A stretch of DNA of 64,000 nt from a virus: positions 11,367 through 75,366 of IMG/VR virus record IMGVR_UViG_3300038673_000745, one strand, 5' to 3'. This document shows, piece after piece, positions 5,623 through 23,597 of the stretch. The notes beneath the pieces are model-generated. The model made no database searches, was not told the origin of the DNA, and saw only the letters and a program-made list of their open reading frames with translations. The stretch's first letter is position 1; each line of letters starts with the position of its first letter. Position numbers and translations under genes: made by a program.

Positions 5623-7161
5623 ATGGGTATCTATTTGGATCTCCTTCGTCTCAGGGATATATCAGCCCACAATTCGCTTGGAATAATCAGAAAAGGCAAG
5701 AAATACATTAAACCGGGTCAGAAGGCACCAAAAGGCGTTCAGTTACACAAAGGACCGAAAGGCGGGACATATTACATTATCGAAGACAAACACACGAAAT
5801 TTGCTGGAAAACATCATGAGCTGGTCCGGAGTAAGGGTGTGACTAAAGATCAATGGGATGAAATCCGGCAGAAATTAATGAGTGAAGGAGCGGAATCAGT
5901 AGAGTTTCTCCCACAACCAGAATACGGTGGAATCAAGGGAAAGAAACTATACAATATCTACGTGAGGCGGGGAGATACTGATGAGAAGATTGAGAGTAAG
6001 ATAAAGGTCGATAAAGATAAATTTGCACAACGTAAAAAGAAGGCTATGAAGAAGGATCTTGAAAAGTTCCTGGCAACAAATCCTGATGGGTTAGAGGATT
6101 CAATTAAGGCCAGGACAAAAGAACCTGAATGGGAATTATCTGAAGATATTTTCACTAATAGAAAGAAAGCATGGGATGATGAACAATTTTATCAAAATAA
6201 AGGATATAAAACAAAGATAATCGAAGGAAAGAACGAAAATGGGAAAAGAACCTATCAGGTACATTATCAGAAACCGGCTCCAGCTACTAATGTAAAGGAT
6301 TATCTGGTCCAAATAGGTGGAAAATATTGGAGATCTAATGATGGATCTAAAGAGCGGGTATATATCCCTCATGAAACGTTTCATACAATGATAGGGCTCG
6401 AATTGCAGTTTTTTGGCACTGGTAATATTAGTTCAGCTAAATTGAAAGGCAAACCTATCAGTAATAACAAAGCGAGGAATATCCATTTTGGAATTAATCC
6501 CTATTATGATTTAAATGAAAATAAATTTTCAGGGGTTAATCCGGATTGGGTTGATGAATTAAATACTCATCTGGAACCATATGAAAAATATACTCCATCA
6601 AAGGCAAATGCTCATAAAGAAGCCAAAAAACCAATATCTATGGGATGGGTGAAAGAACTTGCAGAAGGTGAATCGCCTATGGGGAAGGATGCTAATCGGT
6701 TAGAGTTTCAGAACTATGCAACAAATATCCATGATTCACTAATGCTTCATACCTATAAGAAAGAGTCAGAAATTCCCGCACAATATCATATCAAACCGGG
6801 ATATGATACCGGAAAGATACAAGTATATAATTCCTTTAGTATCAAGGATAAACTAAAATCGAAAGGATTTAAGTGGGATCCATATACAAAATTGTGGGAG
6901 AAATCGGTGAAAGTTTCGGACATACAGAACGAATCCAAGTTTTTATCAGAGTCAGGGGTGACTTCATTCAGGTTTGACAATGCTCCGGATGTACGGAATT
7001 TTATTATTAATGAGCTAAAACCGGAAGGAGGATCCTGGGGTAAATTCTATGATAAGCACCAGGAACAGGCAATGGACAAATTAAATGAGCAGGTTGAATC
7101 AATTAAGAAGAAGTTTGGACTGTTCCAAAAGAATTCAGAGAGAAGAACACGAACCCCATGA
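5623..7161 (+). CDS. leader-bearing putative capsid cargo protein (type A), displaced into the replication region
   Basis: Leader ending IIRK|G, then KKYIKPG..PKGVQLHKGPKGGTYY; first ~120 aa nearly identical to 24145..26166. Confidence 0.75.
   Translation: MGIYLDLLRLRDISAHNSLGIIRKGKKYIKPGQKAPKGVQLHKGPKGGTYYIIEDKHTKFAGKHHELVRSKGVTKDQWDEIRQKLMSEGAESVEFLPQPEYGGIKGKKLYNIYVRRGDTDEKIESKIKVDKDKFAQRKKKAMKKDLEKFLATNPDGLEDSIKARTKEPEWELSEDIFTNRKKAWDDEQFYQNKGYKTKIIEGKNENGKRTYQVHYQKPAPATNVKDYLVQIGGKYWRSNDGSKERVYIPHETFHTMIGLELQFFGTGNISSAKLKGKPISNNKARNIHFGINPYYDLNENKFSGVNPDWVDELNTHLEPYEKYTPSKANAHKEAKKPISMGWVKELAEGESPMGKDANRLEFQNYATNIHDSLMLHTYKKESEIPAQYHIKPGYDTGKIQVYNSFSIKDKLKSKGFKWDPYTKLWEKSVKVSDIQNESKFLSESGVTSFRFDNAPDVRNFIINELKPEGGSWGKFYDKHQEQAMDKLNEQVESIKKKFGLFQKNSERRTRTP
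5644..5903 (+). repeat. 260-bp perfect direct repeat, copy 1 (copy 2 at 24166..24425)
   Basis: Base-by-base visual comparison shows identity; offset 18522 nt equals the offset between the two start codons. Confidence 0.92.
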
Positions 7162-10828: not shown

Positions 10829-10866
10829 AATTCCCGTTTATCTTCTCTCCCACCCATCTCTTTTGC

Positions 10867-11298
10867 ATGGAATCATTGTTACCCTTCGGCATTGATCCAG
10901 CATGGATAGGAATGATCATCGCCTGGGTAGTAGCAGGGGTATTATATCTAAAACTCCGGTCTGTCGTCAACATATCCCGGAACTATGCCCGTATGGTTGT
11001 ATCTCGAGCTAGGATAATGGCCGATGGTCAGATAATCGTAACCGAACCCGATGTTCCGGAATTCGTAAAGGCTACATTTGAGTTCATGGATGAGTTAGAA
11101 GCTGCTCTTTCCAGAATATTTGGGTATCTGGCTAACCATCCATCAACCGGGTGGATTAAAGGATATGAACCGGGTATTCAGGCGGTAGTGAAAGCAGCGA
11201 CACAGGAACTTGCTTCAACTGCTCCTCCGGGACCGTATGAAGTAAAAACAGTAACGCCAGACGAACCGCAGACCGAGACAGTCGGTCAACCAGGATAA
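10867..11298 (+). CDS. N-terminal TM protein (holin-like candidate)
   Basis: WIGMIIAWVVAGVLYL hydrophobic segment; promoter motif 30 nt upstream. Confidence 0.5.
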   Translation: MESLLPFGIDPAWIGMIIAWVVAGVLYLKLRSVVNISRNYARMVVSRARIMADGQIIVTEPDVPEFVKATFEFMDELEAALSRIFGYLANHPSTGWIKGYEPGIQAVVKAATQELASTAPPGPYEVKTVTPDEPQTETVGQPG

Positions 11299-11302
11299 TC
11301 AC

Positions 11303-11743
11303 ATGCCAGTCATTAACATAGTTGGTATCGGACCCTCTGAACAGGAAGCAGCCTTACGGCCAAAACCGGTCCTTTCAACAGATATTCAGACTCTCAATTG
11401 CACAACAAATGGAAAAATCTTCGTAGGAATAGAAATCCTCAAGAACGGGGCTCAATTTGCTCTTCAGATGCTCTTCGACGGAAAACCGGTTGCAATCAAA
11501 GATAATGAAAAAGGTATGAACTCAACCGGAGTGTATACGTCCGGACGATATGAGTCCTATGCAGTCGATCTTCCTTCACGACTGCTCACCGTGCAGAAAG
11601 AACCTCATACGGTCCAATTCCTTATTGGCAAGTATGACCAGGAACAATTCATCGAATCAGGCAGATCTCGGATGTTTGAGATATATGTGACTGGAGAAAC
11701 ACCAAAAATCGATCCAAAGGTAAAGCCAGAGGACCGGGATTAA
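11303..11743 (+). CDS. hypothetical protein
   Basis: 146-aa ORF. Confidence 0.6.
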   Translation: MPVINIVGIGPSEQEAALRPKPVLSTDIQTLNCTTNGKIFVGIEILKNGAQFALQMLFDGKPVAIKDNEKGMNSTGVYTSGRYESYAVDLPSRLLTVQKEPHTVQFLIGKYDQEQFIESGRSRMFEIYVTGETPKIDPKVKPEDRD

Positions 11744-11753
11744 ATTATTTTTT

Positions 11754-11826
11754 GGGCGGGTAGCTCTAACGGCAGAGCGTCCGGTTTGCATCCGGAAGGC
11801 TCCGGGTTCAACTCCCGGTCTGTCCA
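11754..11826 (+). tRNA. tRNA-Ala(UGC)
   Basis: Full cloverleaf: acceptor GGGCGGG/TCTGTCC with G3:U70, D arm GCTC/GAGC, anticodon arm TCCGG-TTTGCAT-CCGGA, T arm CCGGG-TTCAACT-CCCGG, discriminator A, no encoded CCA. Confidence 0.93.
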
Positions 11827-11969
11827 TTCCCTCACTCGCTTCAATGGGTGAGGTGTAGAGGGGTTATGATCTAGTAGATTCGCAACTCTGGAACACACCT
11901 ACCGAATGCGGTAAACCCAGGGCCTTGACGGGTAATGGAACGGTGATGTACCGTTATCAGAATACATCA

Positions 11970-12012
11970 ACTCCTTTCAGGATAACAAACGGTTCAATTC
12001 CGTAAAGGAGCA
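11970..12012 (+). ncRNA. tRNA minihelix-like element (acceptor stem plus T arm only)
   Basis: CTCCTTT/AAAGGAG stem stacked on ACGG-TTCAATT-CCGT; an 11-nt linker replaces the D and anticodon arms. Confidence 0.55.
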
Positions 12013-12107
12013 TCCCATAGGGTAATTCCTATGGAGAAGTATGTGTCGCGAAATACGTGTTGGCAATCCGGAATTAGACGGATAAAACAGATCTCATTCT
12101 GTTTTGA

Positions 12108-12173
12108 ACTCCTGTGGTGTAGTGGTCAATCATACTGGGCCCGGTGACACCGGTTCGATTCCGGTCAGGAGTA
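12108..12173 (+). ncRNA. tRNA-Gln-like RNA lacking the anticodon loop
   Basis: ACTCCTG/CAGGAGT acceptor (A1:U72), D arm GTGT-AGTGGTCAATC-ATAC, CTGGG directly joined to CCCGG, T arm ACCGG-TTCGATT-CCGGT; 66 nt. Confidence 0.75.
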
Positions 12174-12287
12174 TCTCCCCTAATGACCTTCCGTGGTAAT
12201 GGCCGAGCGAAGGGGAGAACAATAATCCTCGGATCATCAGCGAATGCGGTTCATTACCGCATCCGGGGTATTCTCACAGGTGATACT

Positions 12288-15200
12288 TTGCAGAACGATT
12301 ATCAGCGGATGTTACAGGATATTCTTGAGGACCGTTATTTACAACCGGGTGAAAAAACCTTTTCTGACGTTACAACTCGTGTATCCTCATTTCTAAAGAC
12401 GAATGATAAAGACCTCATGGATTCCGGAACCTTCCTTTACAACTCTCCGGCGCTCATGAATGCAGGAACCGCTCATCCTATGATGTCTGCCTGTTTCGTT
12501 TTGCCTATTAACGATTCACTAGATGAGATTTATGACACATTAAAACGAGCAGCGAAGATCTTTAAGGTTGGTGGGGGAGTCGGAATCAATTTTTCTCCAC
12601 TCCGGCCAAAAGGAGCCCCCGTGAAAGGAACCGGGGGCACTTCATCCGGGGCAATTGCATTTATTGAAAATTTTAATTCAATGGTGAAAACCGTAGAATC
12701 GGGAGGAAGACGACGGGGAGCTGCAATTGCAATCCTAAATGATGACCATCCGGACATAATAGATTTTGTCAAAGCAAAATCCGATAATGAATCAGATCTG
12801 AAGAATTTTAATCTATCCGTTCTCATTACAGATAAATTCCTAGAAGCGGTTCAGAATGATGCAATGTGGGAATTGCGATGGAATGATCGCATATTCAAAA
12901 CAATTCCGGCGAAAGAATTGTTTAATCTTATTATCGACGGGATGTATTCGAAAGGTGAACCCGGAATTCTCTTTTTTGAGAATGCGAATCGTTTTAACCC
13001 GATGAAAGAGGTATTAGGAGATATTTACACCTGCAATCCTTGTTTGCATGAAGATTCATTATTATTTACAACTGACGGACTTCAAAAGATATCTCAATGT
13101 AATCATAATATTTGGAATGGATCAGGATATTCTCAATCGAACACTTGGAGTAATGGAATAAAGGAAACGATCAGGATCACTACGAAATCGGGATTTGAAT
13201 GGATTACTACACCAGACCACAGATTCTTATTAAAAGATGGAGATTGGTGTGAGGCTCAATATCTGATGGATAAGAAGATCGCGTTTCAAGTGAGAGAATA
13301 TGATTGGGTGGGGATTAATCCCCATCCTGATTGTGATTATGAAATCCTTGGATTTGAATTTGGGGATGGTTCGTATCATAAAGCCTCTAAACGGATGAAA
13401 TATATCTATGCTACTCCGGGAAAAGATGAAGAGGTTGTAGCAAAACTGGAAACAGTGTTTAATGGTTCATTCTATTTGGATTGTGGAAGTAGATATCTAA
13501 TAAACATTCCATTTGGGACAATTTATACAGATGCATTTATTGGAACTTTGCCAGAACGGATGATTCCTGATTGGATATTATCTCTCCCAAAAGAACAGAT
13601 GAGATCATTCCTCAAAGGATTGTTTAGTGCAAATGGAACTAATCTAAAGAAATATTTTAAATTGCAATTAGTTTCTTCAAATAAAGAGATGCTTCAACAA
13701 GTTCAACAAATGCTTTTACTATTTGGGATAAAAGGGAAACTTTGGTGGCATAATAGAGAAGTGATTCAAACCTTTTACAATGGTGATTATACCTGTAAAC
13801 AATCCTGGCACATTGTAATCAGTGGGGAATCTTATGATAAGTTCTTTGAAACAATTGGATTCATTCAATCATATAAGATGGAACGAATCCCCGGCAGAAT
13901 GTTCAAACCTGAAAAGAATTTTGAAGTAGTATGTGATATTTCAGATGCAGGAATGACAGAAGTATGGGATTTTAATGAGCCTATCAATCACTATGCTATC
14001 TGTTCTGGAGCATTTGTTCATAATTGCGGTGAAATTTTAGCCTGTGTTAATCCTAAAACCGGAGGGGGAGAGAGATGTATTCTAGGTTCTGCAAATCTCT
14101 CTCATTTTGGAACGGTTCAGGAATTTGATATAAATCGGTTTAAAGAAGTTGTTAGGAGCGGAGTTATCGGATTAAATGAAATTGTAGACAAAGATGAACT
14201 TCCACTACCTGAAGTGGCTGAATGTGCAATGCTAGGTAAAAAGATCGGGTTTGGAATTATGGGGTTTGCTGATCTTCTGGTCAAGTCAGGGATTCCATAC
14301 AATTCTGACGATGCCATTCTTGCAATTGAGAAAATAGGGTTTCATCTGAAACAGCAGGCGATTGACACATCAATTGAAGTTGGTTCAATAAAAGGACCGT
14401 ATAAAGAAGGACAATTGATGAGAAATGCCTGTGTCCTCTCTATTGCTCCAACTGGAACACTATCAATCCTCGCTAACTGTTCTTCTGGAATCGAACCGGT
14501 ATACAAATGGGTGTATGACAGAGTCGTGTGCTTGAAAACAGGAGATACGGTGTATAGGATCATTCACCCACTCTATGAAAAACTCCTGGATGAACATTAC
14601 TCAGATCACAAAGAAGAATTGTTAGAGTATGCATACACTCACGGGTCAATCCAGAATGCACCATACATCAGTAAAGAACATAAGAGAATCTATGTTGTTG
14701 CATCAGATATTGAGCCCGGCTGGCAGATACATCACCAGGCAACATGGCAGAAATATGTTGACCAGAGTATCAGCAAAACCTGTAATGTATCATCTGATAC
14801 TACAAAAGAAGAGATCTCACAACTTGTTTTCAAAGCTCATGCAGCAGGTATCAAAGGGTTTACCCTCCTTCGTGAATGGTCGCGGAATGATGCGGTAATG
14901 AAAGCCGGTAAAGAAACCCACAAAAACGGAACCGCGAAACGGAAGAAAGAGTTAACCGGTAAAACCATGCAGTATTCATCCGGTTGCGGAACGCTGTATA
15001 TCACGGTTAATTTCGATGAGAACGGTAAGATAATCGAGGTATTAGCAAACCCGAACGGTGGAGGATGTAACGCATCCATAGAGGCTATGTGCAGGCTCGC
15101 GTCCGTCGCTCTCCGGAACAACCATCCGATAACGGATATCATCCGGCAGCTCAGGAAAGTGAATCCATGTGTAGCAGCCGGGAAGAATAAACAGGCTGAA

Positions 15201-15537: not shown

Positions 15538-15735
15538 ATGAGACAAACGACATCACTCACCGTCTCATATCGGACTCGTGATAAGTTGAAATCTGTTGGA
15601 AAATTTGGGGAATCGTATGATTCTCTTATTAACCGATTGATTGATGAACGAGTATCAGAACCGACAGAAGAATACCGGTCCCAAACCTCGCAGGAAGAGA
15701 CCGGTGACACTCACAATGGAGCAGGTACATGTTAG
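15538..15735 (+). CDS. small RHH-like regulator
   Basis: TTSLTVSYRTRDKLKSVGKFGESYDSLINRLID, a typical archaeal RHH/antitoxin pattern. Confidence 0.7.
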   Translation: MRQTTSLTVSYRTRDKLKSVGKFGESYDSLINRLIDERVSEPTEEYRSQTSQEETGDTHNGAGTC

Positions 15736-23219: not shown

Positions 23220-23597
23220 ATGGTAAAAGAAATCTTTGAGAGAGGTAAATTTGTAGGCTATCAATGTGATGCATGTGGGAAATGCTGCAATGCCATAATG
23301 TTTAACGTAAAATGGTTTAAACAACACCGGAAGTATGCAGTAAGAGACATTGTCGGAGTGCATCAAGAACATGGGGTAATAATCCCGTTTACGGAATCGG
23401 GTAAATGCTGTTTCTTAACTGAAGATAACAGATGTGTGGTACATGATACAAAAGACGATGTGTGTAAAGATTTCTTTTGCAACGGGCACGTATCCAAACC
23501 ATTTGCAATGAATTCATGGACAAATATTCACTTTAGATCACCAAATGGGAAATTGTATGCATTGAAATACTTTCTTTACACAAAAGAAGAAGATTAA
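23220..23597 (+). CDS. YkgJ-like cysteine-cluster (Fe-S/Zn) protein
   Basis: CDACGKCC...CCFLTEDNRCVVHDTK..VCKDFFC. Confidence 0.75.
   Translation: MVKEIFERGKFVGYQCDACGKCCNAIMFNVKWFKQHRKYAVRDIVGVHQEHGVIIPFTESGKCCFLTEDNRCVVHDTKDDVCKDFFCNGHVSKPFAMNSWTNIHFRSPNGKLYALKYFLYTKEED

Follow-up and report, generated by a model that had tools for sequence, protein, structure and literature searches.

Two tRNA-derived units without an anticodon, candidate processing signals, in the variable tRNA island of a Methanospirillum virus

The gap upstream of the ribonucleotide reductase gene

In the window, that is, the whole stretch of 64,000 nucleotides of viral DNA analysed here, positions 11744-12287 form a gap between an open reading frame (ORF) of 146 codons (11303-11743) and the gene for a class II ribonucleotide reductase (RNR). 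A credible coding sequence is absent from this gap, as the first-pass annotation of the sequence had stated, and a Pfam search of the small ORFs within it returned no family match; present are an intact tRNA-Ala(UGC), a minihelix of 43 nt and a loop-less tRNA of 66 nt, all on the plus strand, like the other features described below. Directly downstream of the stop codon of the 146-aa gene, and upstream of the tRNA-Ala, a T6 tract (11748-11753) is legible in the sequence and may represent an attenuator or an incomplete archaeal terminator; related viruses have a T5-6 at the equivalent position, within their minihelix A (see below).

The tRNA-Ala(UGC) at 11754-11826 is indeed intact. It is the sole tRNA called at the locus by ARAGORN (11753-11827), which found no tmRNA, it reaches 57.7 bits with the Rfam tRNA model RF00005, for which the gathering score is 29, and it has a 7-nt anticodon loop with UGC. 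A G3:U70 pair and A73 can be read in the sequence, and CCA is not encoded. The Rfam check that had been proposed was also informative for the rest of the locus: the tRNA model matches the tRNA-Ala and the loop-less unit, and a scan of 11000-13000 with E-values up to 10 gave tRNA only, besides chance-level rows. None of the curated covariance models for Y RNA/YrlA, tmRNA, riboswitches or introns placed the locus in its class.

The array as a whole is more structured than expected by chance, with a fold z-score of -2.80 (0 of 100 shuffles folded equally well) and three perfect hairpins of at least 7 bp in 544 nt, compared with 0.9 per kb genome-wide, a count that is reached by 2.3% of equal-sized windows. 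The first-pass annotation was therefore right about the density of structure, but its statement that nearly every base can be paired was exaggerated, because two long segments fold no better than shuffles: 11828-11969 (z = -1.00), which comprises the proposed multibranch block at 11830-11960, and 12175-12287 (z = -1.09), where further stems up to the ribosome-binding site of the RNR gene had been seen. The three hairpins described between the minihelix and the loop-less tRNA, by contrast, were upheld (12014-12107, z = -3.46). They include a perfect hairpin with a 7-8-bp stem at 12015-12034 and a perfect 8-bp hairpin at 12084-12105, which ends in U4 two bases upstream of the loop-less tRNA; both were found by folding as well as by the hairpin scan. 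A further hairpin with an 8-9-bp stem and the loop GCUUCAAU lies directly 3' of the tRNA-Ala (11830-11855) in both the minimum-free-energy and the centroid fold, and the remainder of the supposed block (11856-11969) is a spacer that is indistinguishable from shuffles. In the putative 5' UTR of the RNR gene, the centroid fold contains a tentative 7-bp long-range stem, CUCCCCU...AGGGGAG (12175-12219), in keeping with the shuffle-like z-score of this segment, and the hairpin scan a perfect 7-bp hairpin (12244-12262). BLAST detected no similarity of the window's spacers to those of any related virus, so that a likeness of 11830-11960 to the relatives' spacers, noticed by eye, was discarded. No excess of antisense matches to the spacers was seen across the viral genome, where the longest is 14 nt versus 12-14 nt in shuffles.

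The start of the RNR gene had to be revised. The ORF track sets it at 12144, inside the loop-less tRNA, whereas homology to RNR begins only at residue 58 of that ORF (12315). In a variant strain (X2), a 1-nt insertion at 12270 breaks the frame, and the TTG at 12288 is replaced by GTG. Together, these observations place the RNR start at the TTG at 12288, behind the Shine-Dalgarno motif AGGTGAT (12278-12284; motif and start, 12278-12290), and the 5' extension is spurious, as had been suspected. An ATG at 12191, located in the RNR frame 17 nt after the loop-less unit, was rejected as a start codon because of the same disruption of the frame at 12270 in X2. The RNR gene itself is interrupted by an intein at 13041-14027 (CLHEDS...VHN, followed by C) with a LAGLIDADG homing-endonuclease domain, and its product ends in a TSCPD domain.

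Two tRNA units without an anticodon

The unit at 12108-12173 is a tRNA-Gln-like sequence that lacks exactly the 7-nt anticodon loop. It scores 48.4 bits with the Rfam tRNA model (gathering score, 29) and is not called by ARAGORN; the strands of its anticodon stem abut (CUGGG directly followed by CCCGG), so that 0 nt stand where the model has a loop of 7 nt. All of its helices are intact (acceptor stem of 7 bp, D stem, anticodon stem with five complementary positions, T stem of 5 bp), A1:U72 and A73 are present, and CCA is not encoded. The unit can be aligned end to end with the tRNA-Gln(UUG) of the host and with viral tRNAs that have a CUA anticodon (Sup(CUA)), with only the seven loop columns missing, and this full-length homology, including A1:U72, assigns it to the tRNA-Gln lineage. 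Compared with the nearest Sup tRNA, 52 of 66 positions are identical and 14 differ (21% divergence). Nevertheless, no pair of the host tRNA-Gln has been lost, owing to compensatory changes at 6:67, 49:65 and 50:64 as well as within the anticodon stem, which could all be older than the deletions. A 10-nt palindrome-like sequence, CUGGGCCCGG, can be read in the unit and would permit pairing between molecules.

The minihelix at 11970-12012, likewise reported in the first pass, was confirmed by a descriptor match and by its fold z-score of -2.94. According to the descriptor scan it consists of a 7-bp acceptor stem, an 11-nt linker, a 4-bp T stem and the T loop UUCAAUU; A1 is located opposite C72 (a mismatch), and the 7-bp stem extends from C2 to U8. 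It does not reach the score threshold of RF00005. In the alignment, the 5' acceptor strand of the tRNA-Gln/Sup type is followed by the 3' strand of the anticodon stem, the variable region, the T arm and the 3' acceptor strand, and the D arm, the 5' strand of the anticodon stem and the anticodon loop are missing. The pair table revealed that the minihelix and the loop-less unit have a derived U6:A67 pair in common. The alignment and the common pair indicate that the window contains two tandem tRNA-Gln/suppressor paralogs, each of which has lost its anticodon via a different internal deletion, and by sequence comparison the minihelix is the further-deleted paralog of the loop-less unit.

The loop-less unit has no loop that could contain a CUA anticodon, and the minihelix has no anticodon arm and hence no 7-nt loop; the two units are therefore not decoding tRNAs, and neither are they suppressors, Y RNAs or tmRNA-like domains. 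At the level of sequence, it has been shown that both derive from a tRNA-Gln-type gene that related viruses have kept as an apparently intact amber suppressor tRNA(CUA). In both, the acceptor stem still stacks on the T arm, and the D arm survives in the loop-less unit. They have the shape of a t-element, that is, an acceptor stem coaxial with a T-arm-like hairpin, with contiguous 3' strands and about 12 bp, which amounts to 7 + 5 bp in the loop-less unit and 7 + 4 bp, with the T loop UUCAAUU, in the minihelix. Two other interpretations were discarded. An attP site was ruled out by the presence and covariation of the 5' acceptor strand. A genome-wide punctuation by minihelices was rejected because the descriptor matches in the 75-kb genome comprise this locus and one likely chance match inside the RNR gene, while shuffled genomes average 2.45; being confined to this locus, such minihelices do not form a general punctuation system.

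Variants of the locus were compared in contigs, probably of DNA, that came from four runs, each of a different study (X2, X3, X6 and X8); runs with a metatranscriptomic label were probably DNA as well. All four span 12108-12173 without an indel, and since the loop-less form occurs in four independent studies, the loop deletion belongs to the virus population and did not arise during assembly. X2 is about 96% identical (about 4% diverged) in the neighbouring gene. It has 19 differences to the window in the 444 nt upstream of the array, mostly at third codon positions, three at most within the array (11749-12242), and at least 20 at 12243-12341; substitutions near the hairpin at 12244-12262 affect its loop, its closing pair and one base just 5' of it. 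The region of low divergence is sharply delimited, with an indel of 264 nt at one of its ends, and recent recombination of a cassette fits this pattern as well as selection does. The 264 extra bases replace five bases at 11743-11749, the site occupied by minihelix A in relatives. A contig break at 12172 in X3 was considered as a possible RNA end, but it has a 13-nt overlap with the next contig and the variant is joined to the non-variant form, and thus it is an assembly break.

tRNA islands of related viruses

A DNA search against the deposited phage collection gave no match for the virus record, an IMG/VR contig of 75,366 bp, and an IMG/VR search with the neighbouring protein or with the exact loop-less pattern did not retrieve a close relative. 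Two loci selected via RNR (L002, L003) were too distant and without tRNAs. Homologs of the 146-aa protein (54-62% identity) are found on contigs of metagenome-assembled Methanospirillum genomes and on a metagenome contig of 3.76 Mb. In addition, the virus encodes a terminase and a portal protein, and it has a promoter motif, aTTTCCYR directly followed by TTTATMT/TATAT, that resembles BRE/TATA elements and was confirmed at 21 sites (including 3464, 9877, 10837, 15507, 24115, 39017 and 62705) about 30 nt upstream of ATGs, a distance that implies leaderless or very short-leader transcripts; distant relatives do not use this motif. Taken together, these features identify an archaeal tailed virus, not a bacteriophage, with the methanogenic archaeon Methanospirillum as its host, and the framing of the locus as a phage non-coding RNA does not apply, since the host is archaeal and not bacterial.

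In relatives, the gap downstream of the 144-146-aa gene contains tRNA genes, namely tRNA-Met (L005/6/7, L009, L013, L016), tRNA-Ala(CGC) (L004) or tRNAs with a CUA anticodon (L004:5754-5825, L013:1768-1840, L021:2129-2200, and L019:1132-1155, which is cut by the contig end). The best Methanospirillum match of the viral Sup(CUA) tRNA, which has an A1:U72 pair, is tRNA-Gln(UUG), with 71% identity. Downstream of the island, RNR is replaced by other genes in the relatives. Within the gap, their similarity to the window is limited to the tRNA-type units and does not extend to the spacers, and the content of the island changes from one relative to the next (Met, Ala, Sup, a variant form, or empty). 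The locus is thus the variable tRNA island of a tailed virus of Methanospirillum. Another non-canonical variant, found in the same slot of a metagenome-assembled Methanospirillum genome (L020:3445-3527), has acceptor and T arms of the tRNA-Gln/Sup type and an odd, enlarged anticodon region; ARAGORN labels it tRNA-Leu(AAG), 81 nt. In L005, an uncalled 145-aa ORF (5678-6115) is homologous to a called gene of L009 (5676-6113), which shortens the seeming gap of 703 nt in L005/L006/L007 to about 243 nt.

Related contigs contain a conserved module (L010:2706-2885, L005:5529-5670, L013:1434-1476 and 1844-1980, L047, L063, L099, L101, L132), in which minihelix A follows a stop codon, a long-range stem of 9-10 bp, CCGGUAUGC...GCAUACCGG, encloses a variable 50-100 nt, and minihelix B precedes an ATG. 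Visual inspection of the long-range stem revealed no bulge-helix-bulge motif. Minihelix A takes the position right after the stop codon that in other cases is taken by a full tRNA (Met in relatives, Ala in the window). In an alignment of 10 distinct sequences of minihelix A, 96.4% of the cells are paired and four pairs have changed on both sides, with slid controls at 52% or less. For minihelix B (11 distinct sequences) the values are 94.4% of the cells and 6 of 13 pairs, a degree of pairing that none of 500 shuffles reached, again with slid controls at 52% or less. Minihelix B ends 4-10 nt upstream of an ATG. For 10 of the 11 distinct relatives, this ATG is the first codon of an ORF with 116-145 aa, and in L004 an intact Sup tRNA is found in its place, 9 nt upstream of the ATG. 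Judged from these alignments, the acceptor/T-arm shape is under selection in relatives of this virus. The covariation in homologs that the first-pass annotation had called for is thus strong, but it resides in two families, A and B, that are missing from the window, and it therefore bears on the units of the window only by analogy. The adjacency to a start codon cannot be transferred either, because the loop-less unit, the last of the array, ends 114 nt upstream of the RNR start, and the RNR gene has a Shine-Dalgarno motif of its own. The possibility that a promoter replaces minihelix B in front of the same gene in the window was rejected, because the ORF concerned (15538-15735) is unrelated to the relatives' gene.

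The presence of suppressor tRNAs in relatives raises the question of TAG recoding, which was rejected for the window. The plus-strand ORF cover is 0.829 with code 11 and 0.836 with TAG as a sense codon, TAG is the stop codon of 6 among 54 large ORFs, and thus this virus apparently has no need for a suppressor. TAG stops are equally rare in relatives with and without a Sup tRNA, and the genes of the Sup-carrying relatives exhibit no obvious TAG recoding. One site in the window may be mentioned, at which the large terminase ORF (21786 onwards) stops at a TAG (23216) and the same frame resumes one codon later with a 125-aa ORF that contains a CxxCxxCC domain (23220-23597); a glutamine suppressor would join the two, which may be a coincidence.

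Transcript processing, alternative readings and known systems

The virus's promoter motif is absent from 11000-12400, the nearest copies being at 10837 and 15507, and thus the array and the RNR gene are probably co-transcribed. In the simplest reading, one transcript would comprise the gene at 10867, the gene at 11303, the array and the RNR gene, possibly attenuated at the T6 tract. The release of the tRNA-Ala from such a transcript requires cleavage by RNase P and tRNase Z in any case. We propose that the two reduced units are t-elements, that is, tRNA-shaped cleavage signals for the same two enzymes, kept from an inactivated suppressor tRNA, and estimate the probability of this reading at roughly 0.5. 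A role as RNase P/RNase Z processing signals had been suggested in the first pass, and of the functions considered it is the one that is best supported, by the retained helices, the covarying minihelices of relatives and the lack of a promoter of their own, all of which bear on it indirectly.

The units have kept the features that the enzymes read and would be expected to act accordingly. The array would be transcribed with the two upstream genes and the downstream RNR gene, and host RNase P would cut the 5' end and tRNase Z the 3' end of each unit, as at any pre-tRNA. Cleavage at the units would release the tRNA-Ala and set the RNR mRNA free with a leader of 114 nt that is capped by the stem at 12175-12219. 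The hairpin-rich spacers would be freed as by-products, and upstream fragments would end in hairpins, like that at 12084-12105 in front of the loop-less unit. The decoding function of the former suppressor would thereby have been switched off and its processing function kept: the part read by the ribosome has been lost, whereas both units retain the stack of acceptor stem on T arm by which RNase P, tRNase Z and the CCA-adding enzyme recognise their substrates, and the loop-less unit additionally retains the D/T elbow.

Alternatively, the units could be neutral relics, pseudogenes of a suppressor tRNA that was useless or harmful, each of them hit by one recent deletion, with stems that have not yet decayed and without any function. 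This is possible but rather unlikely in our estimation. The high variability of the island between relatives, the unconserved spacers and the absence of TAG recoding in the window, which makes a suppressor dispensable, are all compatible with it, as are the A1·C72 mismatch and the T stem of only 4 bp in the minihelix, and the near-identical stretch of X2 has sharp borders that fit recombination and not constraint. However, two independent, clean internal deletions would both have to have spared exactly the acceptor/T-arm half, and the loop-less unit would have to have diverged by 21% from the nearest Sup tRNA without one helix-breaking substitution. Furthermore, the same reduced shape covaries in two other element families of related viruses, and the loop-less form persists in four studies, including a strain that is about 4% diverged in the neighbouring gene.

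It is also conceivable, though improbable, that the units mimic tRNA-Gln without decoding, as processed, CCA-tailed, stable small RNAs that would sequester, as a sponge or decoy, a factor whose recognition depends on the body of tRNA-Gln. Candidate partners are GatDE, a modification enzyme and a tRNA-directed defence nuclease of the host. GatDE is reported to recognise A1:U72 and the D loop without reading the anticodon (Oshikane et al. 2006), and the loop-less unit has kept A1:U72, a host-like D arm and the T arm; in addition, its palindrome-like sequence could pair two molecules. Yet the minihelix has neither a D arm nor the A1:U72 pair, and no defence or counter-defence genes were identified beside the locus, where the neighbouring proteins have no family match; the anti-defence decoy considered in the first pass gained no support. 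A tRNA decoy system of an archaeal virus, with stable CCA-tailed mimics that titrate GatDE, GluRS or a tRNA-directed defence enzyme, or with functional hairpin RNAs released by cleavage, would likewise be a long shot. The remaining reading, a single structured non-coding RNA of about 500 nt, as had also been proposed in the first pass, or a riboswitch-like leader of the RNR gene, is very improbable, in spite of the fold z-score of the whole locus, its hairpin density and the lack of a promoter between the units, because three local hairpins and the tRNA-type units account for most of the signal, two of the three spacers are shuffle-like, Rfam matches tRNA only, and relatives share the tRNA-type units but not the spacers and have other genes in place of RNR.

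Should RNase P and tRNase Z indeed cut the reduced units, as the t-element reading predicts, archaeal viruses would shape their transcripts with tRNA-derived t-elements, and in related viruses a tRNase Z cut after minihelix B would yield nearly leaderless mRNAs without a promoter. Independent of that, one gene slot offers a rare evolutionary series, from a host-like tRNA-Gln via a viral amber suppressor and a loop-less tRNA to a minihelix, which illustrates how a decoding tRNA can become a pure processing signal, and amber suppressor tRNAs are documented in viruses of a methanogen. The elements may be usable as compact processing cassettes for methanogen genetics, as t-elements of Haloferax already are in comparable work.

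The closest relative by descent is the viral tRNA-Sup(CUA), of which an intact homolog occupies the same slot in related Methanospirillum viruses (L004, L013, L021); unlike these, the copies in the window have no anticodon at all, in a sequence without TAG recoding. Bacteriophage genomes offer a more distant parallel. The species 1 and 2 RNAs of T4 are stable non-tRNA RNAs within a phage tRNA cluster, and C4 of P1/P7 and M3 of phi80 are phage RNAs processed by RNase P. They are comparable as small structured RNAs that are co-transcribed with tRNAs and released by tRNA-processing enzymes, but they are bacterial, unrelated in sequence to the locus and not visibly truncated tRNAs. In mitochondria, tRNA-shaped units punctuate polycistronic transcripts and separate the coding RNAs. 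The cut predicted for the related viruses would leave a leader of 3-9 nt and thus a nearly leaderless mRNA, as in mitochondria; however, mitochondrial tRNAs, including armless ones, still decode, whereas the viral units have lost the anticodon and are confined to one locus of the genome.

The highest similarity in shape and proposed mechanism is to the t-elements of plant mitochondria (Forner et al.), which are also non-decoding tRNA shapes between genes with an intact acceptor stem and T arm, and which are cut by RNase P and RNase Z (PMC1920247), so that cleavage by the host's RNase P and tRNase Z would define RNA ends in both cases. Cleavage is a prediction for the viral units. They differ from the plant elements in that they are encoded by a virus of a methanogen, are demonstrably derived from a tRNA-Gln/amber suppressor gene, and occur as two differently truncated tandem paralogs beside a real tRNA, one of which has kept the entire cloverleaf minus seven loop bases. 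With about even odds, therefore, the units belong to a known kind, the t-elements, and what would be new is that these are borne by a virus and are visibly derived from a suppressor tRNA.
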